From positions 1-61,102 of IMG/VR virus record IMGVR_UViG_3300030107_003962: a stretch of DNA of 61,102 nt; one strand, written 5' to 3'. Position 1 is the first letter of the stretch, and every line of letters starts with the position of its first letter. Positions 15,301 to 32,013 of this stretch are shown piece by piece. Below the pieces are notes generated by a model. It searched no databases. It was not told the DNA's origin and saw only the letters and a program-made list of their open reading frames with translations. Source of the DNA: a virus (Duplodnaviria > Caudoviricetes). A program made the position numbers and the translations under genes.

Positions 15301-18300
15301 AGATAAGTCTGAGATTCTTATTTGGGACCAAAATGATTTAGATATAAATACAATAGAAAGGATAGCAGATTATTATGACACAAACTACGAAACAGAAGTC
15401 GGGGAATTTGAAAGCCTCACAGGGTACGCAGGTACGACGCAACAAGCTAACAGAGCATATCTTAGCATCCTCGGACAAGAAGCGGCCAACACGGGGCAAA
15501 TTAGTCAAATCTTCAGGGAAAACCTACCAGTTTTCCGTAGCAAGAGAACGGCAAAAGGGCTCATAGATAGAATAGGTCAACAGCAAATGATGAGTTTCAA
15601 GATAAAAGAAGGAACTCAATTTAAAAACCTTACTCCAGACCAACAATCAGCGGTTCTGGATGGTAATGCAGATTACTTTAGGAATTCCAGAGAGTGGGAT
15701 ACTAGCTTAGAGTTTGGTTCTGGTCCATTAACACCGGCAAATATAAATAATATGATGAAGCTAACCGGTATGGCGATTGATGCAGGTAGAAATGTATTAT
15801 TTGCAGACTTACCTAGATTTATAAGAAAACAAGCTAAAGGGTTAGGCATTGATAAAGATAATTGGACTGAGATGATGCAGAACTTTGAGACACTCCCAAA
15901 GAATGTTCAAAGTTGGATGAAGAAAGTTCATAGTCGTGTAAGTCAGTTAAACTTAAGAAATAAGCAAATTGATGAGGCTATAGATGATTTTGAGGTTTAT
16001 AGAAGCAACCATTGGAGAAGAGGAGAAACATTACCACCAGATAAAAATAAAGAATTAGCCCTTAAGGCAAATAAAGCAGCCCATATGATTGAAGATTGGT
16101 TGAAAGAAGGCGATATAGTTTCTGACAAACTATTAAAAAAGCATAAGAAAAAATTATTCAAAAAGACTAATAGTCTTGCAGACTTATTAAAAGAAAATGA
16201 AAAAGGGGAACTATTAAACGAACAAGCTGCGGAAATGATAAGTTATTATGTTTATACATTAAGAGCTTACCAAAATATAGGGCAAATAATAAATGGTAAG
16301 AAAATGAACATTGGAGATATAGGTGGTCATGTAAAGGAGATATCAGAAAGAAGTGCAGCAGAGCAAATAAGAAAACTAGATAATGACCATGCCCTAGACT
16401 ATATCTTAGAAGACCATCAATCATATGTTCCAAAGGATAAAACCTTACTTGAAGATGCTAAGATTATTCTCGCAAAAGGACCTATACAGAAACCCGGATT
16501 CTTTAAGAAACTAGTTACAATGTTTAATAATACCGAAGGATTTGCAGATATTATACAACAACAAATGGGAATTCCTGCTCATTCAATGGTAGAGAATGCC
16601 GCTCAGAACCATAGTGTTATGGAACAGAAAAATGATGAAATGTTCCACGACTTATTACAAGCTCTTTGGGATGTATATGGAACAACTAATCATCGTAAGA
16701 TAGATGTTAATAGAATGTTTAAAATACAGGCGGTTGGACAGGGCAAGGCTAGTTACGATAAGGATTTAAATAAAGGCGAACGGAGAGTATATGATGAGCT
16801 AAGAAAAATACTAGATAAGAGTGAACACATAGAAAGGTTTAAGGTAAATAGATTCCAGCATTGGAAAGACACCGGCTCTGTTCCAAGGGGTGTTAAAAAA
16901 GGTGTTATGGAAGAGCTTGATAGAATTCTAGTGGAAGATGGTGCGGCGGCTTTTAAGGAGCAATTAAATAAAACTGATGGTTTAATTATAACAGAGAACT
17001 ATATGCCCAACTTAGAAGAAGTTGTTGGGATGGAAGAGATGATGCCGGAGTCTAATCCAAATAAAGATATGAGTGCAGCTGCACCTAAAAGTAGAAAGAA
17101 TATGGGTGGAGCAGAGGGGAATGCAATTGATAATGTAATTAGATGGGGAAGAACATTGAATGCTAAATATTATTTAGACCCTAGTGTTCAACCATTTAGA
17201 GATGTCGTTCAAAGCGGTAAGGCACCACTACCGGTAGATAGATTTATGAGAAAGTTCGTAAAAGAACTTTACAATAGACCCGATGATGTTGATAATATGT
17301 ATGTAAAAGGTATTAATATGGGAATCGGAATGATTATGAAAACTGCATTCTTAGGTCCCGAGATTATAGGAAGAAACTTAGCTCAGGTTCTTACCGGTAT
17401 TCAATATATGCCACTTCCTCAACTAAAAACATATATGAAACATCTTATAAAACAAAGAGCGACAATTAAAGGACAATTAGATGTAACTAAAAATCCAACC
17501 TATGTAGCAGATTTAAAAAGTAACCCTCTGAAGATTCAAGCATTTATGTCCGGTGTGGCTAATATTAGAGGGATAGAAGAAGATATGGTTAGAAAGCAAG
17601 ACCACGAATTCTTAAGAAAAATGGGGGTTGCTGGAGAAATAGGTATGGCTTGGATGAATATGTTTCAAAATAGTGATACCACGAATAGATGGGGTATTTA
17701 TAGTCCTGTTTATGACCATGTAATGTCGCAAATTAAAATAGCTGCCAATAATAAACTTAAATTCTTAGAAAAATCTAAATCATATGACGGAGTTTCAATA
17801 GGTGGAAAAAATTTACCGGATGTGATTATGTGGGACCACGTTGGTCAATATAAATCAGTTCAAGACGCCTTACGACCGGTAATTGATAAAGCGTTACAAG
17901 GGGATGAATTAGCAATGCATTATCTAGCTCATAGAATTGCAAAACACATAGCCGGTCCAATGGTTAATTGGGACTATAGAAGATTTATGAGGAGTGTTGC
18001 CGAATTAGGTAGTGGAGTAGGTAAGATGGCTATGAAAGTTTTAGTATACCCTATGAGCTTAAATAGACAAATGTTTTATGATGTTCAAAAGATATATCAA
18101 GGTGGACAAGAATATATGGGAGGGCGATTAGGTGGTCGTGGAGATGCTAATAGGGGAAAAAGAAAGTTTTGGGGTGGCTTTAAAGGATTAGTAGGAAGAT
18201 TAGCTATAATGAAATTTATTGAGGAAATACTATTAGGAATTACTTATGGGCAAAAAGATGAAACGAATGAGTATGGTTGGGGATATAGAGTTCCGGATGC

Positions 18301-18724
18301 TTTTATGTGGAGTCCGGGCAGTATAGCAGATAATACATACGGAATGTTTATAGATATATTTGAATATGCCCTAGCCGGAGATGGAAAAATGTTTACAAAG
18401 TCTTTACATAGAGCATCTAAAAGTATGTTGCCGGGGTATAAACTAGCGGCTAGAACTGCCGGTGCAATCAAGGGTGTTGATGATGTTCAACCACTTGTAG
18501 ATTTATATGATACAATTATGGGTAATGAATATCCAAGCTATCAACAAAGAGAAATAGAATTTAATTTTATTCAAAGGATTTTCTTTGGGGGTGGCTTTAA
18601 AGATAAAGATTATTATTTTTATGAGGATAGAAAAACCGGTAAGCAAAAAAGAAGAAAAAGGACGGGTGGAACACTTAATAAGAAAAGGAAGAAAAGAAAA
18701 AGAGGGAGTGGTAATTTATACTAA
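12305..18724 (+). CDS. Large internal virion/DNA-ejection protein (T7 gp16-like position)
   Basis: 2139 aa, last late gene; amphipathic/hydrophobic helices at about aa 310-500, helical C-terminal half, very basic tail. Confidence 0.6.
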   Translation: MSLLRTLLEEQSLDQDERLLRHKKRKEAEELREMQENYYAKKSAESIVADNEASNNRPTSDTISSLSKRIERNKNKVEEYVSLLEDKNDIDENVKKGLSGQLIDLTGGQEFNLTQAYKDNYIKERIKGSRVDNDSWGSSNVYDAPWKENLNYNYVNFISNDYETFVPGLGGMIDDDETGDFNEYVKNYDDPNATLVKKFLSDTTRKGANLGPLTAYIQAEHAMDMYQNMQNPGYALWYKTMQDWKESGVPSREAQHNLMKEVYGLDYDYRQATDSSFGRGGHAFLKELTLGYKAPHIDKLESRSAYDEWAYTIGSLAGFGASFLVPYGAAAKVTTKGSQLLHKAAFGSNLVKTGTSAAGAVNATTNLQRFAKWHSTTRGGSMLNQYGTNLLAFNAHGQMYKMPENTTLMDRLEIAGHSTAMATLFTGLGSIGRLFEGGAYLNKGYSRGRYWTAKGSETPLAFGLGYAMTPDDPDNPHDNHNKIINGLFFAGLHSFGTIKTARGVVKDTKTVRKRMQKMQDELGRIYDRGEVIRGADGQMHRVPFTKGDKNWLSQRNEPHLISVKTKQGRLENVDSGKTKGEVLIDTVIKKLQSNPMKLSHHAAQLRHLNRIIEKEYHHHKVTPEEYAANKSKATDGVVANLQTRGGKVPTLAEMNFNAKSKITDMPEVAKINTEMSNLAKGSSQMSSVNAQAKLDKVLSEASEGYITDSATGERVPITSEQVMELDGLTNEWQTNINNIVEAREATTEAKVETPKIETAKPEPKPEVSEAEDIAFGDAPTNVRTKKPLKQFSKPVTTFAEGQKRLTDINNFISNKNEQLSKLEPESKRYEEISGQVYEAQEYKNNLQNFLADKGIIKKPETGTQFASDARDPLMTTEQAIENVGSPKAVQFQETLSKLDKELGLKADLDQSAGFTEEWGDENSLVSTVEGTSPDVRAKMRVRGAYVGMMGKQKDVVNFYGDEAGPHRLHKMTIPTELVPELKESLTEFGLDNKTIIPRGDKSEILIWDQNDLDINTIERIADYYDTNYETEVGEFESLTGYAGTTQQANRAYLSILGQEAANTGQISQIFRENLPVFRSKRTAKGLIDRIGQQQMMSFKIKEGTQFKNLTPDQQSAVLDGNADYFRNSREWDTSLEFGSGPLTPANINNMMKLTGMAIDAGRNVLFADLPRFIRKQAKGLGIDKDNWTEMMQNFETLPKNVQSWMKKVHSRVSQLNLRNKQIDEAIDDFEVYRSNHWRRGETLPPDKNKELALKANKAAHMIEDWLKEGDIVSDKLLKKHKKKLFKKTNSLADLLKENEKGELLNEQAAEMISYYVYTLRAYQNIGQIINGKKMNIGDIGGHVKEISERSAAEQIRKLDNDHALDYILEDHQSYVPKDKTLLEDAKIILAKGPIQKPGFFKKLVTMFNNTEGFADIIQQQMGIPAHSMVENAAQNHSVMEQKNDEMFHDLLQALWDVYGTTNHRKIDVNRMFKIQAVGQGKASYDKDLNKGERRVYDELRKILDKSEHIERFKVNRFQHWKDTGSVPRGVKKGVMEELDRILVEDGAAAFKEQLNKTDGLIITENYMPNLEEVVGMEEMMPESNPNKDMSAAAPKSRKNMGGAEGNAIDNVIRWGRTLNAKYYLDPSVQPFRDVVQSGKAPLPVDRFMRKFVKELYNRPDDVDNMYVKGINMGIGMIMKTAFLGPEIIGRNLAQVLTGIQYMPLPQLKTYMKHLIKQRATIKGQLDVTKNPTYVADLKSNPLKIQAFMSGVANIRGIEEDMVRKQDHEFLRKMGVAGEIGMAWMNMFQNSDTTNRWGIYSPVYDHVMSQIKIAANNKLKFLEKSKSYDGVSIGGKNLPDVIMWDHVGQYKSVQDALRPVIDKALQGDELAMHYLAHRIAKHIAGPMVNWDYRRFMRSVAELGSGVGKMAMKVLVYPMSLNRQMFYDVQKIYQGGQEYMGGRLGGRGDANRGKRKFWGGFKGLVGRLAIMKFIEEILLGITYGQKDETNEYGWGYRVPDAFMWSPGSIADNTYGMFIDIFEYALAGDGKMFTKSLHRASKSMLPGYKLAARTAGAIKGVDDVQPLVDLYDTIMGNEYPSYQQREIEFNFIQRIFFGGGFKDKDYYFYEDRKTGKQKRRKRTGGTLNKKRKKRKRGSGNLY

Positions 18725-19098
18725 TCCTCTTCTTGTTCGGGGTCGGGAATTAAGATTCCAAAATCAACAGATGCCCATCTAATAATTCTATCTAAATAAT
18801 CACGAAATTCATCCCTATCTAACTTAGATGTAGACTCTATCTTAAATTGATTTTTTAATACCTCGTGCATCTCTTCCCTAGTATAGCCAAGTTCATCTCC
18901 AAAAACCCTAACTACAACCTTCCAATAATAATTATTTTGAAAGTGTGTCCTAGAATTGACCTCAGAGATGGTAATATCTACCTCTCCCTCTAAGGTCTCT
19001 AGGAACTCTGACATTTTCTTTCTATTGAGGATTTTTAGAACTCTAGTGTTTTTATTAATTGTTGCTCTAAAGGATTTTGTTTTTGCTACGGGACTCAT
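18721..19098 (-). CDS. NinB/YbcN-like recombination protein
   Basis: RTHFQNNYYW...GYTREEMHEVLK...STSKLDRDEFRDYLDRI; likely start ATG 19098 overlapping the upstream stop. Confidence 0.65.
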   Translation of the reverse strand: MSPVAKTKSFRATINKNTRVLKILNRKKMSEFLETLEGEVDITISEVNSRTHFQNNYYWKVVVRVFGDELGYTREEMHEVLKNQFKIESTSKLDRDEFRDYLDRIIRWASVDFGILIPDPEQEED

Positions 19099-19385
19099 TC
19101 TGTAAACCAACTCCTAAGCAAAAGAAATGCATCTTTCCATAGATTTATTTTATATTTATCTTGAAATCTATTTAATCCTAAAGAGTGTCTTTCTGTGTGA
19201 TGAAGACGGCAAAGAGGAACACAAGTGAAATCTTGAAGAGTTCCCGTGTGTGTCCCCTTTTTTGCACCACCGCCCATTCCCCTAGCTTTGAGATGGTCTG
19301 CATCCACTTGTGTAGCTCCACACACGAGGCATACATTTGACCTCACATAGCTAAGATATTCTTTTGTTTCTTTTTTTAAATCCAC
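19095..19385 (-). CDS. DUF968-like Zn/HNH-type nuclease
   Basis: YLSYVRSNVCLVCG..DADHL..RGMGG...DFTCVPLCRLHHTERH; likely GTG start at 19385. Confidence 0.65.
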   Translation of the reverse strand: MDLKKETKEYLSYVRSNVCLVCGATQVDADHLKARGMGGGAKKGTHTGTLQDFTCVPLCRLHHTERHSLGLNRFQDKYKINLWKDAFLLLRSWFTE

Positions 19386-19591
19386 TACTCTGTTGGTGTT
19401 ATTATGAAGTCCCTTGCAACATCTGATGGCTCCATTTCGTCTTTTGATGTTACACATATGACATCTGCACATCCTAGCACATATGCCTCTGCACTTTCTT
19501 TGGTGTCAAATGGTCTCATTGGAAGAGGCTCGTCTGAATCTTTAAGCATATCTTTCCAACAAACCAAATAACTTATTGGTGTTTTAGTCAT
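19385..19591 (-). CDS. Hypothetical protein (68 aa)
   Basis: RBS AGGAGAATCAA-ATG. Confidence 0.7.
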   Translation of the reverse strand: MTKTPISYLVCWKDMLKDSDEPLPMRPFDTKESAEAYVLGCADVICVTSKDEMEPSDVARDFIITPTE

Positions 19592-19600
19592 TTGATTCTC

Positions 19601-19762
19601 CTATTTATGTATACCATATATTGCCTTACAAGATGGACAATTTATATCGTATTTATTGTGTTTTAATGGACAAAAGTATGGCTTGTATTTATCTAAAGGT
19701 GTAACCACACTCTTATCAATGTCTTTAAGTTTTAATGCACCATCGTAATCTGAGATACTCAT
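19601..19762 (-). CDS. 53-aa Cys/His (Zn-finger-like) protein (not in track)
   Basis: MSISDYDG...FCPLKHNKYDINCPSCKAIYGIHK fills the gap. Confidence 0.6.
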   Translation of the reverse strand: MSISDYDGALKLKDIDKSVVTPLDKYKPYFCPLKHNKYDINCPSCKAIYGIHK

Positions 19763-19772
19763 ATATTTATTC

Positions 19773-20381
19773 CTAGCGAAAAGGTGGACCGGATATCCAT
19801 ATAACTAGACTTTCTCGTTGCCCACTTATTATTGGTTTAACTTTATGTAATAAAAATGATGGAAATACGGCTAATGTCCCTAACTCTTTCGGGCATATAA
19901 TAGACTCTCTATTTGATTTGATTATCATCTCCCCACCATTGTAGTCTGTAGGGGAGGATAGTTGAAGCGATGCAGATATTTTTCTTGTCATATTTCCCAC
20001 ACCGGTATCTAAATGCCAATCGTAGTGATGACCTTGATTATATATAGCATATTGAAATGCCTCGTTGATTCCAAAGATATCAAATTTCCATAGCTTATTA
20101 TTTGAACTAACTATGCAATCTGCAATCCTTTCATACATCCATCTGTTTTCTTGTGTAGGATATAGCCAACCTACATTGGTCTTTCTATAGGAGTTATCTA
20201 CCTCTCTGTTACTAGTTATAGTCCCATCTTTAAATACTATCTTCTTTTTATATTCTTTTATTCTTAATATTTCTTCTTGTGTAAAAGGTTTAAAGGTTTG
20301 CCATTGTCCAACCCTTATCCCATCCATTTGGCTAGAGTATGTTTTCTGTTGAATTCTACTATTTAATGAATTACTTGGCAC
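19773..20381 (-). CDS. 2OG-Fe(II) oxygenase (PKHD-type hydroxylase)
   Basis: HYDWHLD...RKISASLQLS..DYNGG...FPSFLLHKVKPI..GQRESLVIW motifs. Confidence 0.9.
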   Translation of the reverse strand: MPSNSLNSRIQQKTYSSQMDGIRVGQWQTFKPFTQEEILRIKEYKKKIVFKDGTITSNREVDNSYRKTNVGWLYPTQENRWMYERIADCIVSSNNKLWKFDIFGINEAFQYAIYNQGHHYDWHLDTGVGNMTRKISASLQLSSPTDYNGGEMIIKSNRESIICPKELGTLAVFPSFLLHKVKPIISGQRESLVIWISGPPFR

Positions 20382-20655
20382 TTAAATCCTTAACTAAATC
20401 TTTGAATTTATATTTATTTTTTGGTCCATGTTCTCTTTTGGCACAAGTTTCACATATGGTCATATCATCGGTTTTTGTTAGATAGTTTATAATTGATTCA
20501 TATACAAAAGATTTCTTTAATGCTATGCTCTGCTTACACATTTCACAATAGCTTTTTTCTCTCTCAACTTTTGTCATTTTTACAATAGGTGTAGACATAG
20601 GTAGTTCTCCATATTTTTTGATTATATATCGTCTTAGCTTTCGCTCTGAGTCCAT
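20371..20655 (-). CDS. Zn-finger protein
   Basis: CEMC...CETC. Confidence 0.6.
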   Translation of the reverse strand: MDSERKLRRYIIKKYGELPMSTPIVKMTKVEREKSYCEMCKQSIALKKSFVYESIINYLTKTDDMTICETCAKREHGPKNKYKFKDLVKDLSAK

Positions 20656-21056
20656 ATTCTTATCTCAGTTCTTGGATTAAGCGAATATACTTTCATTGTT
20701 CTTAGGTGTGAAATACAAGCATCGTCTTTCCAAAGAATTTTATTGCCAGAATCCATAACAAATTTTACCAGATTGTCAATATCTGGTTTCTTTGAGTGGT
20801 CTTCTCCGATGCCCTTTTTGAGTTTATGAGAATACTTTCCCGTCCTAAAGTGGCTCTTAGGTCTCTTCATATAGAATATCATTTCTACAGATAATGGCTC
20901 ATTAAATGGTTTGGAGTGCATCATAGAGGCGAGTTGCATCGCAAATGCTTGTTTGTCCCGGCTATTCGGGTCATAACTTATTATTCTATTAGATGCTCTC
21001 CGATACCTATGTCGCTTTTGAGGGATAGGGTTACCATTTATTTTAAGTTCAATCAT
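20634..21056 (-). CDS. rusA: RusA family Holliday junction resolvase
   Basis: GNPIPQKRHR...KKPDIDNLVKFVMDSGNKILWKDDACI; likely start ATG 21056. Confidence 0.9.
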   Translation of the reverse strand: MIELKINGNPIPQKRHRYRRASNRIISYDPNSRDKQAFAMQLASMMHSKPFNEPLSVEMIFYMKRPKSHFRTGKYSHKLKKGIGEDHSKKPDIDNLVKFVMDSGNKILWKDDACISHLRTMKVYSLNPRTEIRIWTQSES

Positions 21057-21174
21057 CTTCTTGATTCTCCTTTTCAAGTCGCTTTTGGTGTCTTTCTGCT
21101 TTCAATTTGTCAAAGAACATCCTACCATCTGCCGTTATCCATATGTGTTTCAGCTCGTGTGATATAGGTCTCAT
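21049..21174 (-). CDS. 41-aa hypothetical protein (not in track)
   Basis: MRPISHELKHIWITADGRMFFDKLKAERHQ..., translationally coupled on both sides. Confidence 0.55.
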   Translation of the reverse strand: MRPISHELKHIWITADGRMFFDKLKAERHQKRLEKENQEDD

Positions 21175-21917
21175 AATTTACCACCTTTATATAATTTATT
21201 CAATGGAGAATCACAAATATCCGAATAGTTACAATACTTACCACACTCCCATTTATAAACCGGAACAATTCCGTTTGTTAGCTTAGGCTCAGTATTTGAG
21301 CCAATATGTTCATTCACAAAATGTCGGGCATTTATCCAATATCTTTCTGCCTCTTGCATAACACTTAGGCTTAACACTTTTTCTTCCATTTTGCTATCGT
21401 TTTTGTTGTAATAGAGCAATCCTAGATGCACTATCTTATCACACAATCCACTTTCAACACTCATACTAGCATAAGTTCCAACTTGTAGTTCGTTGTTAAT
21501 CGTTGGATTCTTATGATTAAATACATTTTTATATTTAAATGAGTTTGCCGTCTTCCAATCATATAGAGAGCCATTACCATCCTCATCTACTATTAATAAA
21601 TCAAGATGACCGGCTACTCCTAGATATTCAGACTTTAATAATGTTTCTTGGTAAAACTTATAATTGGGATTATCTTTTGCTTTCTCATCAATACCTCTTG
21701 CGAAATCTTCTCCCATTATAGTTCCAAGCCTCATTATCCTTAATCCATCAACATCTGCACCCTTTTGTTTTGCTCCTATCTTTCTGTAATAATGCTTTTT
21801 TACACAAAGACCGGAACTTGATGCCTCATACATATCCGGATTATCCTTTGCTCTTTCTAACTTATGCTCCTTGTCTTTTTTAACAAGAAACTCATTATAT
21901 ATTTCAATCGGATTCAT
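21171..21917 (-). CDS. Cas4-like PD-(D/E)xK exonuclease
   Basis: ASSSGLCVKK...GHLDLL...DWKT...QVGTYA...WECGKYCNYSDIC (four-Cys Fe-S staple). Confidence 0.85.
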   Translation of the reverse strand: MNPIEIYNEFLVKKDKEHKLERAKDNPDMYEASSSGLCVKKHYYRKIGAKQKGADVDGLRIMRLGTIMGEDFARGIDEKAKDNPNYKFYQETLLKSEYLGVAGHLDLLIVDEDGNGSLYDWKTANSFKYKNVFNHKNPTINNELQVGTYASMSVESGLCDKIVHLGLLYYNKNDSKMEEKVLSLSVMQEAERYWINARHFVNEHIGSNTEPKLTNGIVPVYKWECGKYCNYSDICDSPLNKLYKGGKL

Positions 21918-22581
21918 TGATTCTCCTATTTTCTATCTTTAATTCTCTTGAGTATTTAGATGAATAGGTTTCTTTGGTTGGGTCGTTCCCAATATCTTTA
22001 TTCCGAACATATCCTCTTAATTTTTGGTGTTCCTTGTGCCTTAGTTTTCTAATAGCCTTTTCTTTAATTTGTCTAACTCTTTCTCTAGTCAAACCAAATT
22101 CTAAGGCGATTCCATCTAAAGTTGTAGGACACTTACCATTAAGACCAAAATGCAATTCTATAACATCCCTCTCTCTATCTTTTAATTTAAAAAGTGAGGC
22201 TTTCATATCTTTTATTAGCGAATCTCTATTGTCAATATCATCTGTGTTGTAATCTGATTCCAACTGCATTACATTTTTTGATGATAGAGATAACATTGAA
22301 TCAATAGGAATATCCTTAGTTATTTTCTTTGGATATCCCTTGCTTTTCTTAATAACCTCTTCATATTGTTCAAACAAGTCATACACATCACAATTTAACA
22401 TTTCTGCTAATTTGGTTTGGTCTTGTGTGCTAATGTTTGTGTGTTTTAAAGATGCAATATGATAAAGAGTTCCAGTTCTAATTCCGGAAACCCTTGACAA
22501 TTCTGCAATAGATTTATATTTACTATTTTCTAATGCATTCATAAAGGTTGCATTTTTAAATCTAATTTCTGCTTTTATCAT
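21904..22581 (-). CDS. XRE-HTH fused to RpoD-like sigma70 region 4
   Basis: N-terminal SIAELSRVSGIRTGTLYHIA; C-terminal LKDRERDVIELHFGL...TLDGIALEFGLTRERVRQIKEKAIRKLRH. Confidence 0.8.
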   Translation of the reverse strand: MIKAEIRFKNATFMNALENSKYKSIAELSRVSGIRTGTLYHIASLKHTNISTQDQTKLAEMLNCDVYDLFEQYEEVIKKSKGYPKKITKDIPIDSMLSLSSKNVMQLESDYNTDDIDNRDSLIKDMKASLFKLKDRERDVIELHFGLNGKCPTTLDGIALEFGLTRERVRQIKEKAIRKLRHKEHQKLRGYVRNKDIGNDPTKETYSSKYSRELKIENRRINESD

Positions 22582-22599
22582 TTGTTCTCCTTTTTATAA

Positions 22600-22866
22600 G
22601 CCAAGGAACTCTTAGTGCGGACGAAAGGACTTAATTTCCAACACACACCTAGAGTTCCCCAACTTTCTCGACGAGTAAACATCCTATCCAAAACACTAGG
22701 ACACCTACCTAATTTTAAGGCGAAGATAGAGTCGCCACCCTACCCCCACCTTGAGTAAGGTGGTAGAATAAATAGCCAACCACTCTCTGATTCCCGAGAT
22801 AAGATTTCAATCATATAAACTAGAGTTGCCTTTCGGGTCTAGTAATATGAACAATCTATCATCAGA
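22600..22866 (-). ncRNA. Candidate structured RNA (five hairpins)
   Basis: Stems at 22786-22866, 22746-22763, 22719-22736, 22677-22706 and 22600-22663; several extend by G-U pairs only on the minus strand. Confidence 0.55.
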
Positions 22867-22868
22867 CC

Positions 22869-23042
22869 CTACTCTTCAGATTTATCGTTGAAATCCTTAA
22901 GCCACTCTACTAACTGAGAATAATCTATTGAGTTTATTTCAATATGATTTCCACTAGTTATGTATGGTTGTGCCTTAAAATATAAATCACAACCCGAGTA
23001 GTCTAAGAATGCTTTTAATGTCTGTGCATCTATCTTAGTCAT
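22869..23042 (-). CDS. 57-aa hypothetical protein (not in track)
   Basis: MTKIDAQTLKAFLDYSGCDLYFKAQPYITSG..., overlaps the rep stop. Confidence 0.65.
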   Translation of the reverse strand: MTKIDAQTLKAFLDYSGCDLYFKAQPYITSGNHIEINSIDYSQLVEWLKDFNDKSEE

Positions 23043-23832
23043 TCATTTTCCATTTGTTAGTTAAGTTACCTACAACATCTTTAAAGTCATCGGGCAATCC
23101 AATTTCTCCATCGTCAAGTTGTTTTTGATACTCTTCTTCTCTTATTCTCTGCTCTTCCATCTGTTTCTTTCTTCTGAGTTCATTTCGTATTTTATCGGTC
23201 TTCTCAACATATGGACTCTTAACCCAATTTCTAAAACCGGCTTGGTAGTCTTTATATCTCTTTCCTTTAGATGCTATATAATCCTTAAACTTATCAAACT
23301 CTAGGGTAACATCTACATCTAAGTATTTCCCTTGTAGTTCATCTAAGAATTCCTTATCTATGCTTTTAAGAGATACATCTTTCTTTACTCTTATTGCCTT
23401 ATCTATTTCTTTATCTATTTCTTTATCTATATCTTGGACTCTTCCGGCACTCTGATTACCACTCTGATTTTGTGCATCATCAAACTCCTCTTGTGAAATA
23501 ACTCCATATTTGATGAGCCTTTTGATACACATAACAATCATTGAAGACTTTTTACTTAGGAAATCCGGATACTGAAAGTCCATAAAGTCTTTAATGTAAA
23601 CCACCTTGTCGTGATTGGTTTCTACTAGTTGATGTTTTAATGCCGGTGGGCATTCCGTTAAAGGAACACCCGTAAGCATTGAACATAATCTCCAATTCAC
23701 ATTCCAAAGTCCCGCCTCGTCGCAATTATCAAGTAGATAAAGCCATACTAGTTTATCGTTAATCTCAAGCGAGAGAAACCACTCTTTCTCCCACTTAAGA
23801 ATATCAGTAAACCTCTTTTTAACTCTCTGCAT
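23035..23832 (-). CDS. Phage replication initiator (replisome organiser-like)
   Basis: N-terminal KRFTD..KW..WF..L....KLVWLYLLDNCD.AGLW winged helix, central DIDKEIDKEIDK iteron-encoded linker, C-terminal EFDKFKDY..SKGKRYKDYQAGFRNW. Confidence 0.8.
   Translation of the reverse strand: MQRVKKRFTDILKWEKEWFLSLEINDKLVWLYLLDNCDEAGLWNVNWRLCSMLTGVPLTECPPALKHQLVETNHDKVVYIKDFMDFQYPDFLSKKSSMIVMCIKRLIKYGVISQEEFDDAQNQSGNQSAGRVQDIDKEIDKEIDKAIRVKKDVSLKSIDKEFLDELQGKYLDVDVTLEFDKFKDYIASKGKRYKDYQAGFRNWVKSPYVEKTDKIRNELRRKKQMEEQRIREEEYQKQLDDGEIGLPDDFKDVVGNLTNKWKMND
23394..23466. repeat. Iteron block / likely replication origin inside rep
   Basis: Three 12-bp repeats TTATCTAT(T/A)TCT plus two CACTCTGATT; intragenic ori as in lambda O-type initiators. 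Confidence 0.6.
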
Positions 23833-24251
23833 TAAAAGGGTATGTCCTCTTTAGATACTGCCGGTGTTCCAATAGTATCTTCAAGAGCCTTAATCCTTTT
23901 TTCTAGCTCTGCGACCTTATCAGTTGTAGGGGATGTAGCCGGACTAGGTGCTTGTGGAGTGGTTGGTATTGTAGCACCATTAAAGTCATCAATGGTTTTT
24001 CCATTAACCTCAAAAACCATAAATACTTTCCCTTGAATATCCTCTTTCTTTTTCTTTCTTATTGAAAGAACATCTCCCTCTTTAACACCACTTGCTTTTA
24101 ACAAGGTGTTGAATTGCTCGGTAGCATAAAACACATCATCTGCATTGCATTCCCACTTATATTGTGTTCCATAATCTCCGGTTACTGCAACTCCGGTATC
24201 TGATTTCATTTTACAAGTCATTATATCTTCATTGAATTTAAGTATAGCCAT
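23832..24251 (-). CDS. ssb: Single-stranded DNA-binding protein
   Basis: C-terminal EDIPF tail after a Pro/Thr linker; lies between the annealase and rep; start MAILKF at 24251. Confidence 0.65.
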   Translation of the reverse strand: MAILKFNEDIMTCKMKSDTGVAVTGDYGTQYKWECNADDVFYATEQFNTLLKASGVKEGDVLSIRKKKKEDIQGKVFMVFEVNGKTIDDFNGATIPTTPQAPSPATSPTTDKVAELEKRIKALEDTIGTPAVSKEDIPF

Positions 24252-24253
24252 TT

Positions 24254-24700
24254 CTATTGTTCTCCTTTTGGTAGGTCTTCTCCGGCATATATGTATGCTC
24301 CTAATCCAAACATACTTATACACTTAACAAGACATCTCATTTTAGTATCTGATATTGCCCTAGCCGGTGGTTTAGGAATAGCATTGTTACGATAATCCAT
24401 AACCGGTAGCCACATTACTCTCTGATTTCCATCTATATCCATTGTGCATTCCACCATACAAGTCCCATCTGAATAATAACAGACATCTTTCTCGTTTGAA
24501 TGTTCTCCACAATTGAACATAGTGAATTCGTATTTTGCTTGAGGGTAGTATTTCATTAATGTATCCCAAGCCCAAGCCCAAGATAAGTAAGTTAATCCAC
24601 CCTTTTCTTCGGTGTGTTCATTTACATTTACATTAGATAAAGTTTCCCAAATCTCTTTAAATGTAACTCCCTCTACTGCTTTTTCTTTCTTTTCACTCAT
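24254..24700 (-). CDS. Sak3/DUF1071 single-strand annealing protein
   Basis: LTYLSWAWAW...MWLPVMDYRN...MRCLVKCISMFGLGAYIYAGEDLP. Confidence 0.9.
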   Translation of the reverse strand: MSEKKEKAVEGVTFKEIWETLSNVNVNEHTEEKGGLTYLSWAWAWDTLMKYYPQAKYEFTMFNCGEHSNEKDVCYYSDGTCMVECTMDIDGNQRVMWLPVMDYRNNAIPKPPARAISDTKMRCLVKCISMFGLGAYIYAGEDLPKGEQ

Positions 24701-24869
24701 TTGATTCTCCTATGATTGATTTGATTTTAGTTTTAATTGACTCTGTAACCACTCTGTCTTCAGAGAGGATAAGGGATAAGTATGACTCCGATATACCTAT
24801 CTTATTAGCCAACCATACTTGTTTAACCCCATTCTTCTCTATAAACTCTCTTAAATCATCAACTATCAT
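24693..24869 (-). CDS. 58-aa Cro/XRE-type HTH regulator (not in track), probably leaderless
   Basis: MIVDDLREFIEKNGVKQVWLANKIGISESYLSLILSEDR... Confidence 0.8.
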   Translation of the reverse strand: MIVDDLREFIEKNGVKQVWLANKIGISESYLSLILSEDRVVTESIKTKIKSIIGESNE

Positions 24870-24875
24870 ATTGTA

Positions 24876-24904
24876 AAATTACATCTGTAAAATATTCTTT
24901 ACAA
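24876..24904 (-). promoter_or_regulatory. Sigma70-like promoter for the Cro-like gene and replication operon
   Basis: TTGTAA-N17-TAATTT, 6 nt before the ATG. Confidence 0.6.
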
Positions 24905-24912
24905 GTATTATG

Positions 24913-24941
24913 TTACACCCACCAAATATCTTTTGTATATT
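24913..24941 (+). promoter_or_regulatory. Divergent sigma70-like promoter for the acidic ORF
   Basis: TTACAC-N17-TATATT, 6 nt before ATG 24948. Confidence 0.55.
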
Positions 24942-24947
24942 ATAACA

Positions 24948-25163
24948 ATGACAAAAGGTAAAAAAACATATATTTTACGAATTGAATTTGATGATGCTAC
25001 TGATGAAATCTCCTCTATTTATGAAAAGTTAGACCTAGATGACAATGAATATGATATTAGCTGTCTATCCGAAGATGAAGACCTTTATTTTTGCCTATCC
25101 GACCACCTAACTGAAGAGGAAATAGAGTTAATACGAGGTGCTACTGATGTAGGTTTTGCTTAG
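24948..25163 (+). CDS. 71-aa very acidic protein, the only plus-strand gene I accept in the early arm
   Basis: MTKGKKTYILRIEFDDATDEISSIYEKLDLDDNEYD...; occupies an otherwise empty gap and has its own promoter. Confidence 0.7.
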   Translation: MTKGKKTYILRIEFDDATDEISSIYEKLDLDDNEYDISCLSEDEDLYFCLSDHLTEEEIELIRGATDVGFA

Positions 25164-25308
25164 ATTTAGCTACAAACACTTTCATTAGACTTACTATTGC
25201 ATTTTTAACATTCTTAAAGCCGGACGAATAAACTGCCGATTTAAATTCATTATATAATGTTTCATCAAGTCCTCTGATGTTCATTGCTCTCCCTTTATCT
25301 TTTTCCAT
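25141..25308 (-). CDS. 55-aa ribbon-helix-helix (Arc-like) protein (not in track)
   Basis: AMNIRGLDETLYNEFKSAV...VKNAIVSLMKVFV matches the RHH pattern. Confidence 0.6.
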   Translation of the reverse strand: MEKDKGRAMNIRGLDETLYNEFKSAVYSSGFKNVKNAIVSLMKVFVAKSKQNLHQ

Positions 25309-25510
25309 TGGTTTCCCCCATTTCTATTTTTGGTATTTGTTTTGCTCCAAAGACATCTACATAGATACTTATAACATCCTCATCTTCCATCTCTCTGTAT
25401 CCACTAGTTCCAAAAAGTAGGATGTTAGATAAGTCGCTACGACCTAAGTTATCTGCCTCATATAAAGCAAGTTCTTCTCTCATTTTTTCGTAATCCGGTA
25501 TTCTAGCCAT
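25295..25510 (-). CDS. Hypothetical protein (71 aa)
   Basis: RBS AAGGAGA; own promoter. Confidence 0.7.
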   Translation of the reverse strand: MARIPDYEKMREELALYEADNLGRSDLSNILLFGTSGYREMEDEDVISIYVDVFGAKQIPKIEMGETNGKR

Positions 25511-25524
25511 AATATCTCCTTTGT

Positions 25525-25553
25525 AATATATGTAACATTAGATACAAATACAA
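25525..25553 (-). promoter_or_regulatory. Sigma70-like promoter
   Basis: TTGTAT-N17-TATATT, with TGTTACA in the spacer. Confidence 0.55.
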
Positions 25554-25880
25554 CTATTGTCTATTAGGTGTTATATTGGGCATTACACTTGATTTGAGAA
25601 ATACCTCATTGGGAAAGCTAGGATGAGTTTCAGTTTCTCCGGTGTGTTCTATAAATAAAGCACCACCATCGTTACCCTCATCATCTTGTTGAGGATATAT
25701 TCTCCACCCATTATCAAGAGTCATTACAATAGGTATTTTATACCAATCAAGATGATTTGCAAGGTCATCAGACATATACTCAACCTTAACAATAGTTCTT
25801 CCTTTTAGTTTATCACTTGCCTCTTGATTCCAATATCTTCTGATTTCATTTGGCTCTATACTTTTTAGTTTATTGCTCAT
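25554..25880 (-). CDS. Hypothetical phage protein
   Basis: LKGRTIVKVEYM...IYPQQDDEGNDGGAL; strong RBS. Confidence 0.75.
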   Translation of the reverse strand: MSNKLKSIEPNEIRRYWNQEASDKLKGRTIVKVEYMSDDLANHLDWYKIPIVMTLDNGWRIYPQQDDEGNDGGALFIEHTGETETHPSFPNEVFLKSSVMPNITPNRQ

Positions 25881-26037
25881 TTGATTTCTCCTTTATTATT
25901 GTTATGACCTCATCATCTTGTAGGTCTATATTATATTCATCTTTATAGGATGCTTTTAAGAGTGATACAAACTCCTCTTCACTATTTGCATCCATATCTA
26001 CACCCCATTCTATCCTCACATCTGCATAGAATCTCAT
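25870..26037 (-). CDS. 55-aa acidic hypothetical protein (not in track)
   Basis: MRFYADVRIEWGVDMDANSEEEF..., RBS AGGAGA. Confidence 0.65.
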   Translation of the reverse strand: MRFYADVRIEWGVDMDANSEEEFVSLLKASYKDEYNIDLQDDEVITIIKEKSNEQ

Positions 26038-26204
26038 TAGATATTCTCCTTTCTGTATTTAGGTTTGAGTTCTCCCAACACATAGAGCAATGAATGTATA
26101 TAACCAAATAATGCCCACTTGTCAAGTTCATCATACCAATCCTTATTTTCTTTCATTGTTTGTGCTATTGCTAGTTGGTTTCTTATTTCATTTTCTGTTA
26201 TCAT
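26037..26204 (-). CDS. 55-aa hypothetical protein (not in track)
   Basis: MITENEIRNQL...YIHSLLYVLGE; ATGA coupling. Confidence 0.65.
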   Translation of the reverse strand: MITENEIRNQLAIAQTMKENKDWYDELDKWALFGYIHSLLYVLGELKPKYRKENI

Positions 26205-26452
26205 AGTATTTTCCCCCTATATATGTAACGAGTCCAATTAGAGTCAGAGTCCGATTCTCTCTTGCTCTCTATGTCATACCCATCATCACGAAGATTATAT
26301 ATAATAGCCGACAATCTAGTTGCTCTATAAAGTTGGATAGCATCCCAAGATGTTATGCTCCCCTCTCTTTGAAGATGCATCAAGACCTTACCGGTTTTTG
26401 TTTTCGGCTCTTCGTTACGAGTTTCTCCAATAGTAAACTGATAGTTTGTCAT
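26201..26452 (-). CDS. Winged HTH protein (HTH_39-like)
   Basis: KVLMHLQREGSITSWDAIQLYRATRLSAIIYNLRDDGYDIES. Confidence 0.8.
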   Translation of the reverse strand: MTNYQFTIGETRNEEPKTKTGKVLMHLQREGSITSWDAIQLYRATRLSAIIYNLRDDGYDIESKRESDSDSNWTRYIYRGKIL

Positions 26453-26463
26453 TTGTTTCTCCT

Positions 26464-26673
26464 TTACCATAATGGTTTGTTTTTCTTTTTACTCCTTTGT
26501 CTGTTTAACTTAAGCATACAGATTTTACAGATGGATGCAGTAGTGTAATATTCATCTAGCTTTCTTACTTTCTTGCACTTATTACAAAACTTACCACCAT
26601 CTCTAAATCTGCTTTTGTATTTTTTAGATACCTCTATGTGATTACCACCCTTTGATTTTTCTATTTTTGTCAT
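26464..26673 (-). CDS. Small Zn-finger protein
   Basis: KFCNKCKKVRKLDEYY...CKIC. Confidence 0.6.
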   Translation of the reverse strand: MTKIEKSKGGNHIEVSKKYKSRFRDGGKFCNKCKKVRKLDEYYTTASICKICMLKLNRQRSKKKNKPLW

Positions 26674-26677
26674 TTCA

Positions 26678-26986
26678 TTAAAACCTCGCTTTGTGGCTAT
26701 TATAACATAGTTCAGATATCTCTTCATTTTTAAAGAGCATCTCTAGTTTCTCCTCTGCTTGTTCAAGATTGAGTTCTCCATCTTCAAATAACTCCTCGTC
26801 AGACAACTCTCTCTCTGCCTCAATGCTATCTGCATACTCACAACACTCATTATATATTTTCTTATCTTTAACCTCTACCCAATCGCAGAAATTCTGATAC
26901 CAAAATAATAACATATCTAACTTTTCTTGCACTTTAGCATTTTCTGTAAGTTGTTGCATATCTATCTTATTTCTTACCTTGCTCAT
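26678..26986 (-). CDS. Hypothetical acidic protein
   Basis: RBS GAAAGGAG. Confidence 0.7.
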   Translation of the reverse strand: MSKVRNKIDMQQLTENAKVQEKLDMLLFWYQNFCDWVEVKDKKIYNECCEYADSIEAERELSDEELFEDGELNLEQAEEKLEMLFKNEEISELCYNSHKARF

Positions 26987-27122
26987 AATACTCCTTTCGT
27001 GTCATTTTTGTTAGCTTTACCCTTTCCATATCTCTTAGTTGTGGAAGACTATCCCAATCATAGCCTAAATCATAGCCACAATCATCAAGCCAATCCCAAC
27101 AAGCATCTTTTATTCTACCCAT
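26967..27122 (-). CDS. 51-aa hypothetical protein (not in track)
   Basis: MGRIKDACWDWLDDCGYDLGYDWDSLP...; TAATG coupling. Confidence 0.65.
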   Translation of the reverse strand: MGRIKDACWDWLDDCGYDLGYDWDSLPQLRDMERVKLTKMTRKEYYEQGKK

Positions 27123-27871
27123 TATAAGTCCATCCCAAGCACTTTAGCACTCTGAGTATTTCTTTCCGGATAGTCTACACTAACTAGATTCTCGGATACT
27201 CTACCAAACTGAGCAACCGGTCTGCCAACGAATGCCTCACTCTCTTCTTCTACACTCATACAGAATTGTAAGAATGGGTATTTCTCTGTTGCTTTCTGTA
27301 GCCAATCCATTGGTGGCGACCAAGCAGTATTGAATTGGATTTGTATCATTAAATCCTCATCATCTCTATCTGCTATGTAGCTTTCAGAGGCATCCCATTT
27401 AGTCCCCCAATTAGCACAAGACCAACCATACCAATCCTTATACCCATACTTTTTTATATTATCAAGAGCAATTCGTCCCTCTTTCAAGGAATCTTCCCAA
27501 TCATCTCCATTCTGTCTACTAGCTAGGTATTTACAAGCCTCATCTCTTCTCACATCTTCATTCATTCTTTGTATCTTATCATTCATCCACCCATAGCTAA
27601 GTATCTCATCTATCCTCTCGGGATTTCCATTTTCCAACCAATCAATGTAAGCCATTCCTTGCTCGGTAGATGTTCCACTTGTTATCATTAGAGATTTAGG
27701 CATAGGACACACTCCACCAAGTGTGAAATACTCGTCGCCCTCTTTATCTTTCTTGAAAGATTTCTTGACAAAGTCCTTGTATTGCTTTACTGCATCTTTC
27801 TTTTCCTTGTCGTTATCTAGTTGATACTCCATTGGTCTAACTTCTAGTGTATTAAATGTCCAATTAGGCAT
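27122..27871 (-). CDS. DUF1281/Api92-like ferredoxin-fold protein
   Basis: MPNWTFNTL...WYGWSCANWGTKWD...FNTAWSPP. Confidence 0.85.
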   Translation of the reverse strand: MPNWTFNTLEVRPMEYQLDNDKEKKDAVKQYKDFVKKSFKKDKEGDEYFTLGGVCPMPKSLMITSGTSTEQGMAYIDWLENGNPERIDEILSYGWMNDKIQRMNEDVRRDEACKYLASRQNGDDWEDSLKEGRIALDNIKKYGYKDWYGWSCANWGTKWDASESYIADRDDEDLMIQIQFNTAWSPPMDWLQKATEKYPFLQFCMSVEEESEAFVGRPVAQFGRVSENLVSVDYPERNTQSAKVLGMDL

Positions 27872-28214
27872 TTGTTATCTCCTTTATTTTATTATATTCA
27901 CTTGCCGGTATTAACTTTCTACCACCATTGTCTAGGTAATCTTCCAACCAAGACACCTCTCCACCGGTTTGCAATCTCCACATAGCAAACTTTGGTATGT
28001 TATCGTTGTGTATATAAAACAGAACATCATTTCTCCCACCGGTGTTCTCATCTCCCTTATCTGCTCTTGTTTTATATTCTGTTATGTATTTAACTTTAAA
28101 GTTCATCTCCTTATCAAGATACCTTTCAAAGTTATTTATCTCATCTAGGCTTGGTGTGTCAGATTCAGATAATAACAATCCTCTCCACACTACGACTTGT
28201 TTATAGTTACTCAT
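27864..28214 (-). CDS. Hypothetical phage protein
   Basis: TGGRNDVLFYIH..IPKFA..RL...WLED; RBS present. Confidence 0.7.
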   Translation of the reverse strand: MSNYKQVVVWRGLLLSESDTPSLDEINNFERYLDKEMNFKVKYITEYKTRADKGDENTGGRNDVLFYIHNDNIPKFAMWRLQTGGEVSWLEDYLDNGGRKLIPASEYNKIKEITNA

Positions 28215-28653
28215 TCTCATTCTCCTTTGTTGTTTCTTCTGAACTATCCTCTTCTTTAGGCTCTTCCTCTTTAGGTGTCAAGTCATCATATACACAATCC
28301 CTAACCTCTGTTTCATCTAGGGAAAATGTATCGTCCTTACCAACCAACAAGATATTAATCTCATCTGTATAATCATTTACATCAATGTATGGCTCATCAT
28401 TATACATATAGATATTATCAAGTTGTAGTTGAACTGCATTTAGTGTTAGGTCTATGATGTGATTTGTTTCTGCACTTAACCCATCATTATTACCACTCCT
28501 CATAGCAACTATCTTATTCTTCAGTAAAGAGCAATCTTGCGACTCTGTGTCCATACCCATTATATAATGTAGTTCTCTAATAAACTTTCTACTATTGTCC
28601 AACTCTTCCATAACATCTGATATTTCATTGTGTAACTCTTTTATTGCTTTCAT
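28207..28653 (-). CDS. Hypothetical acidic protein
   Basis: RBS AGGAGAATCAAATG. Confidence 0.75.
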   Translation of the reverse strand: MKAIKELHNEISDVMEELDNSRKFIRELHYIMGMDTESQDCSLLKNKIVAMRSGNNDGLSAETNHIIDLTLNAVQLQLDNIYMYNDEPYIDVNDYTDEINILLVGKDDTFSLDETEVRDCVYDDLTPKEEEPKEEDSSEETTKENENE

Positions 28654-28666
28654 TTGATTCTCCTTA

Positions 28667-29038
28667 TTATTTATTTAACATATCATTTATTTGTTGCTCT
28701 GTGTGGTCGTCCTCAAGACAATCCACACACACATCTTCACTCCCATCTGAACAATCTACATAGTCATCTACTATATCTGTTTGAGATTCATCTTCTCCAC
28801 ATCTATCACAGACAACCACATCTACCTCATTTGGTGTTATTATATCTCCCCACACATTACTCCACATATACTCATTCCAACATTCAATATCTCCACATAT
28901 AACACCCCCACTATGAGCAGTTGATGATAGTTCAGTTTCTTCTGAATTTGCTCCACAATGGTCGCATTGAGGTAATTCATCATTCCAATCCCAAAGCATA
29001 CCACCACACGACCACTCATTTCTCTTTACTATCGCCAT
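28667..29038 (-). CDS. Acidic multi-CxxC Zn-binding protein
   Basis: CDHC, C-x4-C, CDRC, CVDC. Confidence 0.7.
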   Translation of the reverse strand: MAIVKRNEWSCGGMLWDWNDELPQCDHCGANSEETELSSTAHSGGVICGDIECWNEYMWSNVWGDIITPNEVDVVVCDRCGEDESQTDIVDDYVDCSDGSEDVCVDCLEDDHTEQQINDMLNK

Positions 29039-29190
29039 TCTTCTCTCCTTTCCGGTTTAGTCATATCTATACCGATTTTCTTTTCTATGTTCTCTATTCT
29101 ATTTAATAATATATGGTCGGCTTCTCGCATCTCTTTAACCACTTGCCTTAAAGCCGGTTTCAAGTTAGCATTAATCCATTCTTTATCCAT
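29029..29190 (-). CDS. Small coiled-coil hypothetical protein
   Basis: Start MDKEWINANL via TAATG coupling. Confidence 0.6.
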   Translation of the reverse strand: MDKEWINANLKPALRQVVKEMREADHILLNRIENIEKKIGIDMTKPERREEWR

Positions 29191-29390
29191 TATTCTTCCC
29201 TCGCTATCTTGATTACACCATCTAGTCGCTTTTGCTTTTCGTCTTCGGATAACTCGTCCCAATCACTAGGGAAATCAAGCATTCCGGTAGCCTCAAACAT
29301 TCTCTTCTTCCAATCGTTCTTTTCTTTTTGATTATCACATAATAACTCTCCAAATAAAGCTACCATTGATGTTGTTTTTAATTCACTCAT
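29190..29390 (-). CDS. Hypothetical protein (66 aa)
   Basis: KEKNDWKKRM...FPSDWDELSEDEKQKRLD. Confidence 0.7.
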   Translation of the reverse strand: MSELKTTSMVALFGELLCDNQKEKNDWKKRMFEATGMLDFPSDWDELSEDEKQKRLDGVIKIAREE

Positions 29391-29391
29391 A

Positions 29392-30946: not shown

Positions 30947-30964
30947 AATTTCTCCTTATGAAAT

Positions 30965-30992: not shown

Positions 30993-30998
30993 ATTTAT

Positions 30999-32012: not shown

Positions 32013-32013
32013 C

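Follow-up and report, generated by a model that had tools for sequence, protein, structure and literature searches.

An RNA motif common to marine phages and a marine bacterial lineage, with a diverged copy upstream of a sigma-like phage gene

Introduction

HK022 put, lambda nut, the Bacillus EAR element and the LoaP leader are cis-acting antitermination RNAs, and the glutamine riboswitch found in cyanophages is a host-derived regulatory RNA of marine phages. The present work concerns a gene-free stretch of 287 nucleotides (nt) that lies between the replication module and a sigma-like regulator gene in a viral DNA of 61,102 nt (IMG/VR record IMGVR_UViG_3300030107_003962, Caudoviricetes), the whole of which is called the window below. 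The 3' part of the RNA read from this stretch is a diverged member of a conserved two-hairpin motif, and the motif is an RNA family absent from Rfam, supported by covariation and common to marine phages and a marine bacterial lineage.

Two published descriptions are the nearest to the arrangements reported here. The HMP-PP (thiS) riboswitch is terminator-embedded (PMC6478431), and the main-text passages of the structured-RNA catalogue of IMG/VR (Fremin et al. 2023, PMC10690425) report 8,495 unnamed candidates, many of them within 25 nt upstream of genes, and mention neither sigma factors nor the gene context described here. The motif may be listed, unnamed, in that catalogue. No description of it was found in searches of the literature on structured RNAs in marine phages, on Marinimicrobia phages (including the passages of PMC4611503 on the subject) or on riboswitch candidates of dicarboxylate symporters.

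Results

A conserved two-hairpin RNA motif

The leaders of orthologues of the sigma-like gene aligned with the window RNA only in their 3' part, which reads UUAGGUA...GAUGUU..C..GUCGA(A/G)AAG and continues into a G-rich hairpin and then the ribosome-binding site. At the loci L002 and L003/L004 a gene-free leader of 250 nt with the canonical motif precedes the orthologue, in the same position as in the window. Only the 3' half of the window RNA is the conserved unit: its last ~125 nt (22594-22716) represent a diverged copy of a motif in which a hairpin P1 is joined by a linker GUCGAAAAG to a hairpin P2, the latter with an internal loop and a tip that varies. P1 has at least 7 base pairs (bp), opens with UUAGGUA and closes with GAUGUU(U)AC; the length of its loop varies and its 3' strand is strongly conserved. 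The linker (consensus CGUCGAAAAG) is single-stranded and keeps a fixed length between P1 and P2, and P2 is composed of a helix P2a of 3 bp, a 3x3 internal loop and a G-rich inner helix P2b of about 8 bp, with tips that range from a UUCG tetraloop to more than 60 nt.

The first DNA pattern was too strict and gave 2 chance matches inside coding sequence. With a pattern built from words of the leaders, viral contigs yielded 28 stretches and metagenome contigs, many from ocean surveys, a further 96. The covariance model R1, built from 12 short copies, had matches at 30 places in 33 viral loci and in 57 of the 80 metagenome loci listed (of 96), with at most one match per locus. The letters of P1 and the linker had been fixed in this pattern of leader words, which led to another one with P1 left free; this recovered 8 further loci (6 distinct sequences) in which the P1 arms are altered yet still pair, long forms of P1 included, and P1 variants occur in L231-L237. 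The model R2 gave one match in each of 90 sources, representing 64 distinct sequences, a result that is not a detection rate since all 90 had been preselected as prior matches. At E <= 1, R2 had 0 matches in 76 unrelated phage loci and found 8 of 8 expected loci.

Covariation was found among these homologous intergenic regions. Standard pairs occupy 95.4% of the 1075 paired cells of the R2 alignment, and changes on both sides occur in 11 of 18 pairs (P1 1/7, P2a 3/3, P2b 7/8). The covariation score was reached by none of 500 shuffles, and partners slid out of register pair at 34-58%. Among 835 cells from 50 distinct metagenome copies, G-U or U-G pairs account for 97 and A-C or C-A for 5, and this excess of G-U over A-C shows that the structure belongs to the RNA of the sense strand. 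The distance from UUAGGU to CGUCGA ranges from 15 to 37 nt with pairing kept. Column-wise counts were not possible for the long-P1 variants and the group-B 5' domain described below, since their MAFFT alignments were too shifted.

The window copy scored 11.7 bits with R1 (E 1.3, third in the window) and 19.0 bits with R2 (E 0.052, first in the window, at full model length, 22594-22716 on the minus strand), compared with 27-88 bits for the other members. Its low score is explained by an insertion of 21 nt in P1 and a P2 tip of 38 nt. The long form of P1 is also present in L156, and the P2 tip of the window is shared only with L100 and L140, AGUCCUUUC included, and can be aligned with that of L100. 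Membership of the window copy was accepted on the R2 hit together with the P1 of L156, the tip of L100/L140 and the orthologous downstream gene in L002 and L003.

No Rfam family accounts for the motif. Canonical phage and bacterial copies gave only sub-threshold matches in Rfam, mostly terminator-like or driven by the Shine-Dalgarno (SD) sequence, and no antitermination RNA family was listed in the scans. Hammerhead, pistol, hatchet and preQ1-like readings, which were considered, had no Rfam match either, and resemblances to CsrA sites and to RfaH ops fit some copies only.

Bacterial copies and the host question

Two of the metagenome loci, L128 and L137, are cellular and carry the motif between genes for small signal-peptide proteins and a gene for an SDF symporter (PF00375, ~4e-117) of the dicarboxylate/amino-acid type, GltP/DctA-like below the curated cut-offs; L128 additionally has MenD-, MenF- and UbiE-like genes. 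The closest genome, L239 (Candidatus Neomarinimicrobiota), contains the motif at 55.3 bits in a locus arranged as in L128 and L137. Single matches were found in 5 of 41 genomes of the family of L239, in 4 of 74 of its order and in 1 of 151 sampled from the phylum, and all bacterial matches with readable flanks were at the symporter locus. The DNA pattern matched 21 times in 185,579 prokaryote genomes and none of these matches was confirmed by the model; the pattern missed the bacterial copies because their P1 loop differs. At L253, L254 and L255, two or three tandem genes upstream of the motif encode similar proteins of 127-149 amino acids (aa) with signal-peptide-like starts (MKMVKNIA...), and those of L128, which were tested, matched no Pfam or NCBIfam family.

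P2 of the bacterial copies is formed by GGCUCC/GGAGCC followed by U5-7, with an A-run before it, the AUG of the symporter gene lies within ~10 nt and the only GGAG is in the 3' strand of P2. Judged by its sequence, the bacterial P2 is an intrinsic terminator with the ribosome-binding site inside it, and the predicted layout is that of an attenuator, with a recognised element, a terminator hiding the ribosome-binding site and a gene without a promoter of its own. The combination of hairpin and U-run was seen in L119, L128, L137 and L188. Two of these, L188 (338-406) and L119 (3193-3262), are of the phage type and resemble the bacterial copies: U7 comes after P2, and the AUG of the following gene overlaps this U-run.

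Like the phages, these bacteria have AAGGAG sites before other genes, and the shared motif and SD style suggest that the Marinimicrobia-type carriers may be the phage hosts. Regarding a CRISPR-spacer link to these bacteria, matches of 27-35 nt were not in repeat arrays at the two places examined. Over 130-190 nt, the region-4 part of the sigma-like gene (window 22037-22197) shares 71-77% of its nucleotides with one locus that recurs in many genomes from the order of G001; in the comparison with the sigma genes of the bacteria, protein identity is 48-58%. This similarity was not counted as host evidence because the comparison had no outgroup control.

Genomic context of the phage copies

The window has a single copy of the motif, and so has each of 5 whole viral records, of which 4 are rated 100% complete. 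The motif is intergenic, and the flanking genes are co-directional with it. Upstream is the replication module (AAA_24, a primase-helicase of 588 aa, HNH) and downstream a mosaic module, whose first gene belongs to one of at least 15 unrelated families, among them sigma-like proteins, proteins like the C-terminal domain (CTD) of the RNA polymerase (RNAP) alpha subunit, DUF1599, zinc-ribbon, MazE/AbrB-like, small helix-turn-helix (HTH) and membrane proteins. The alpha-CTD-like proteins have 186-198 aa (PF03118, 2e-17) and are encoded directly downstream of the motif at L108:2334-2927 and L084:11731-12288. Phage copies before so many unrelated families, and bacterial copies before one symporter family only, do not form the coherent gene set expected of a metabolite riboswitch; the mosaic of downstream genes favours a signal about position or timing over a pathway-specific metabolite.

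In 32 of 53 distinct copies, the start codon of the next gene comes 6-17 nt past the motif; the SD sequence of the phage copies is predicted to be mostly unpaired (mean 0.68). On the upstream side the RNA directly adjoins stop codons, so that a promoter has no space there. The group of L089 has AAGGAG within the linker and AUG directly after P2, so that P2 would bring the two together.

Fold, strand and hairpins of the window RNA

The initial annotation had described the stretch as a gene-free, multi-hairpin RNA of the minus strand, G-U pairs arguing for RNA rather than for a DNA cruciform, and our results bear this out. On the minus strand, 22582-22868 folds at -93.5 kcal/mol (z -3.91, with none of 200 shuffles as good), compared with -63.2 kcal/mol on the plus strand (z -2.65, 1 of 200 shuffles as good). 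Open reading frames (ORFs) that overlap the stretch have only 31-47 aa, every frame contains 2-11 stops, and a blastx comparison with 335 neighbourhood proteins, a set that does not include the large protein databases, returned nothing under E 0.8 except the stretch's own spurious ORF; a decayed or small protein gene was rejected on the stops and the lack of similarity to these proteins. The G+C content is 0.40-0.46, with ~0.30 in the flanks. No match was obtained when 22400-23100 was compared as DNA with 50,697 phage records, nor in a local blastn search of the stretch against the first 80 loci. Contigs of near-identical strains from four DNA runs, compared over 22300-23200, had 0 changes in the stretch and 5-6 across the 901 nt, a divergence too low for a test of pairing.

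The features of the region are collected in Table 1. Among the individual hairpins, H-c folds at -21.8 kcal/mol on the minus strand and -7.8 on the plus strand (z -4.9), P1 (22674-22709) at -9.8 and -3.7 (z -2.5) and P2 at -28.8 and -17.4 (z -4.9); each of these three loses most of its energy on the plus strand, which indicates an RNA of the minus strand. The segment 22793-22868 containing H-a gave -20.8 kcal/mol on the minus strand and -16.9 on the plus strand (z -3.0), and H-b alone gave -7.2 and -5.9 (z -1.5), a weak fold no better than chance. Hairpins a, d and e of the initial annotation are all present in the minimum-energy fold. The words of its pairings b (CCACCTT/AAGGTGG) and c (GGCGA/TCGCC) also exist in the stretch, although the fold prefers GUGGU/ACCAC and the helix of 16 bp in their place.

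Table 1. Features of the gene-free stretch and its flanks in the window
Feature	Position	Strand	Description	Basis
Structured RNA region	22582..22868	-	Intercistronic, 287 nt, five successive hairpins	No gene, raised G+C, fold z
Upstream ORF	22869..23042	-	57 aa; stop codon abuts the RNA	No family
Hairpin H-a (a of the initial annotation)	22793..22866	-	Long, imperfect; GAAA tetraloop 22831-22834 closed by CC/GG	
Hairpin H-b	22757..22787	-	GUGGU/ACCAC core; competes with b of the initial annotation	
Hairpin H-c	22717..22752	-	16-bp helix AAGGUGGGGGUAGGGU/ACUCUAUCUUCGCCUU, 6 G-U pairs	Minimum-energy fold
P1 (d of the initial annotation)	22674..22712	-	UUAGGUA ... GAUGUUUACU; lengthened to 13 bp, 5 G-U pairs	R2 alignment and fold
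Linker J	22663..22673	-	CGUCGAGAAAG; one extra G compared with the family consensus CGUCGAAAAG	
P2 (e of the initial annotation)	22598..22665	-	P2a AAG/CUU, internal loop, P2b GGGGAACUCU/AGAGUUCC, variable tip with ..AAGUCCUUUCGUCC..	
Ribosome-binding site of the HTH-sigma4 gene	22587..22590	-	GGAG, 7 nt past P2; start codon 22579-22581	
Downstream gene	21904..22581	-	225 aa; N-terminal HTH (PF13443) and sigma-70 region 4 (PF04545, 8e-15); phrog_351	

In the window, the 5' part with its three hairpins (22717-22866) is accessory and lineage-specific. A search of viral contigs for homologues of H-a, H-b and H-c with a 19-nt word of this part gave 0 matches, so that the case for it comes from fold energy and strand asymmetry. 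The exception is a short contig of run X6, which joins a sequence like 22710-22802 of the window (11 differences) to a canonical short P1.

The initial annotation had considered the stretch to be a regulatory leader or a small-RNA cassette with anti-SD loops. Its position against the ribosome-binding site of the HTH-sigma4 gene agrees with the leader, and the cassette was not upheld. Across the family there is no conservation of the loop words GUG(U)UUGGA and UCCUUUCGU. A 9-nt complement of the last loop is indeed present at 26992-27000 and is the sole non-self match in 61 kb, but as a target it is at chance level: 0.28 matches of the 9-nt word are expected per shuffle, and the matching site is simply an AAAGGAG ribosome-binding site.

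Scans for signals around the stretch were negative. Window 22300-23300 contains 0 sigma-70-type promoters (-35/-10 with a spacing of 16-18 nt) compared with 3.8 expected, no intrinsic terminator (G+C-rich hairpin and U-run) was found in or flanking 22582-22868, terminator-like sites downstream in the window number 8 compared with 6.3 expected, which is not above chance, and a scan of 18000-34000 for promoters and terminators showed no excess over shuffles. ARAGORN called 0 tRNA or tmRNA in the window and 0 in 17 related loci. An Rfam 15 scan of the whole window at the gathering score, a check proposed in the initial annotation, gave 0 matches, and one of 22400-23050 at E <= 10 gave 3, all far below threshold and either outside the stretch or overlapping it by 10 nt or less (SNORD62 ends at 22859).

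5' domains of the relatives

Many relatives have ~95 nt more before P1, which form a three-way junction; in other copies coding sequence runs right up to P1 and there is no 5' domain. The closing helix of this domain is, depending on the group, AUGAGCAGU/ACUGCUCAU, UGGGAGAC/GUCUCCCA or AGAGCAGCC/GGGCUGCUU, and it is swapped wholesale between groups. The domain includes a hairpin capped by GUGA, GCGA or GUAA, and H-a of the window is capped by GAAA. H-c of the window ends 4 nt before UUAGGUA, at the site that is occupied in the relatives by the closing helix (P0) of the 5' domain. When folded alone, 10 of 13 group-B sequences took the shape of the three-way junction.

The group-B domain (L005:3590-3702, L231:1367-1479 and 11 other loci) has a GNRA-capped hairpin and a conserved UUCCUUU strand. 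Its 3' end, GGUUCRAnUCUCCCA, recalls the T-loop and acceptor end of a tRNA; ARAGORN calls no tRNA there and the tRNA-like reading was rejected.

Other features of the window genome

The viral record is complete and belongs to a tailed phage. Its plus strand encodes the small and large terminase subunits, portal, major head protein, tail fibres and endolysin, and a long minus-strand operon carries ArdC-like, Sak, RusA, PD-(D/E)XK, NinB, HNH and 2OG-Fe(II) oxygenase genes. The best match of the terminase among the 50,697 phage records has 26% identity, and no cultured phage is close.

The ArdC-like anti-restriction protein, encoded at 30999-32012 in the early operon, has a zincin-like metallopeptidase domain. 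Between this gene and that at 30491-30946 there is a G6/C6 hairpin (30959-30992); on the plus strand, and so against the direction of the two genes, it has the form of a strong terminator with a T-run. Four very large ORFs of 1476, 844, 2139 and 1161 aa (78-4508, 4998-7532, 12305-18724 and 52294-55779, respectively) have no PHROG family, and their sole Pfam match is a CBM_5_12 module in the ORF of 1161 aa. Two stretches, 32605-33666 (1.06 kb) and 55780-57456 (1.68 kb), contain no ORF of 60 aa or more, and the former separates the divergent early and structural modules.

Discussion

Our results describe a structured RNA of the sense strand that is conserved between genes in phages and bacteria. 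We somewhat favour the explanation that the motif is a cis-acting intercistronic regulatory RNA leader, in which P1 and the linker would be recognised and P2 would act on expression. In the window, 22582-22868 would be transcribed on the minus strand within the long leftward operon and fold as a multi-hairpin RNA. P1 and the linker are the putative recognised part, for a protein of host or phage or for a small ligand, and P2 is the candidate expression part. In the bacterial copies P2 appears to be a terminator that contains the GGAG of the next gene, and it would therefore decide the passage of both transcription and translation into the symporter gene. In the phages P2 would have lost the U-run and come to lie directly before the ribosome-binding site of the gene that opens the next module, which in the window is the sigma-like regulator.

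Several observations weigh against such a role. No alternative (antiterminator) pairing was found, the SD sequence is predicted to be free in the phages, so that no on/off mechanism is visible, and the window has no terminator-like site in the element or right after it. The unrelated families downstream argue against a metabolite riboswitch tied to a pathway. The leader is also not required for the sigma-like gene, since the orthologues in L005, L006, L008 and L009 have none directly upstream, and L112, the closest locus by the upstream protein of 265 aa, is without the motif within 2.5 kb. With regard to the motif itself, the pairing counts come from model-fitted alignments, which favour structure, although strand asymmetry and slid controls give a clear signal nonetheless; the near-invariance of P1 and the linker is partly built in because the search patterns demanded those letters, and the changes in P1 are almost all one-sided. 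The window copy is marginal (R2 E 0.49 among 574 kb) and could not be called without synteny.

Other explanations fit parts of the same evidence. The motif could be a cassette for mRNA processing or stability, in which an endoribonuclease of host or phage would cut the linker, P1 would protect the upstream 3' end and P2 the downstream 5' end, and the two modules would be uncoupled, as at the RNase III sites of T7 and at RNase E sites. The succession of hairpin, A-rich single strand, hairpin and ribosome-binding site suits a cassette of this kind, as does a motif that is always intergenic without room for a promoter, tolerates any downstream gene and leaves the SD sequence free. However, there is one site per genome, whereas the known phage processing sites recur many times, a terminator in the bacterial P2 already makes a 3' end, and the 3' strand of P1 is conserved beyond the need of a generic cleavage site; we give processing some chance of being right, a modest one. 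The elaborate 5' domains raise the question of a stand-alone trans-acting RNA (ribozyme, decoy or small RNA) that would be processed from the operon and be active as the whole unit of 190-290 nt. The three-way-junction domain of ~95 nt, with its GNRA cap, its swapped closing helix and the similar folds of group B, would suit this, as would the conserved junctions with a variable periphery and the units of L119, L128, L137 and L188 that end in hairpin and U-run, as small RNAs do. An independent RNA is nevertheless unlikely: the 5' domain is absent from many copies and different in the window, the promoter scan was negative, a position so close to the next start codon suits a role in cis, the proposed loop target is a chance match and no Rfam ribozyme family matches.

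Reading the motif at the level of DNA, as a replication origin, an attachment site shared with the bacterial chromosome or a promoter or operator on which the sigma-like factor acts, would agree with its single copy in phage and bacterium, its position just after the replication module, the ~20-nt stretch GUUACCUCGUCGAAAAGA that is nearly identical in phage and bacterial copies and the resemblance of P1 to an inverted repeat of 7 bp. We consider it very unlikely in view of the strand-specific excess of G-U pairs (97 to 5) and the covarying helices of P2. The spacing of 15-37 nt between the arms of P1 moreover breaks a fixed-spacing promoter or operator, no integrase or recombinase was found among the 54 window ORFs compared with Pfam nor among those compared with PHROGs, and the bacterial genomes have one copy and not the two expected around an integrated phage if the motif were the phage attachment site. 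A spacer without function, rich in hairpins by chance or left by a decayed gene, would account for the marginal model score of the window and for H-b, which folds no better than shuffles, and is hardly credible given the fold z-scores, the conservation and covariation in 64 distinct copies, the unchanged stretch in near-identical strains (with only 5-6 changes across 901 nt) and the lack of protein similarity.

Taken as a cis-acting leader, the motif invites a broader proposal, in which Marinimicrobia gate the symporter with a new ligand- or factor-sensing RNA, and phages captured it and enlarged it to ~290 nt with three-way junctions and long P2 tips, reading the metabolic state of the host to time the switch from replication genes to their own regulators (sigma-like, RNAP alpha-CTD-like and zinc-ribbon). 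This is speculative and rather unlikely to hold in full. Such a captured sensing RNA, if real, would provide the first sequence-based host link for a large group of uncultured marine phages. Should the more general description be correct, a new RNA family is shared by uncultured marine phages and SAR406/Marinimicrobia, a major uncultured lineage of the ocean, and it would offer a host assignment for dozens of phage genomes of 45-60 kb without a cultured relative. It would also be a testable regulatory device at the junction of early and later phage modules, for which the bacterial terminator form suits a reporter test. In the window, an unexplained gap of 287 nt becomes an annotated element with defined parts.

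Comparison with known systems

Compared with antitermination RNAs, the motif is likewise a compact two-hairpin RNA of the nascent transcript that is indifferent to the gene that follows; it is intergenic inside a long operon, as in Bacillus EAR, and its bacterial copies sit directly before a terminator. There is no similarity of sequence or model, and the terminator-like sites downstream in the window are at chance (8 compared with 6.3).

The motif can also be compared with riboswitches and protein-dependent attenuators. Unlike in those systems, no antiterminator pairing was found and no Rfam model matches, and the phage copies precede unrelated genes, whereas the bacterial copies precede a single gene family. 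What is alike is a conserved sensor-like hairpin and junction followed, in the bacterial copies, by a helix that would be an intrinsic terminator holding the SD sequence. The core is joined to varied 3' arrangements (a terminator, an SD-adjacent hairpin or a hairpin between SD and AUG), and the stems covary and the tips vary in length, again as in riboswitches and attenuators.

With regard to the glutamine riboswitch of cyanophages, the present case differs in that phage copies outnumber the bacterial ones and are more elaborate, and that the direction of transfer and the host are here a matter of inference. It is alike in the distribution of the RNA: uncultured marine phages carry the motif, and so does the chromosome of a bacterial lineage of the sea whose AAGGAG sites are the same as theirs.

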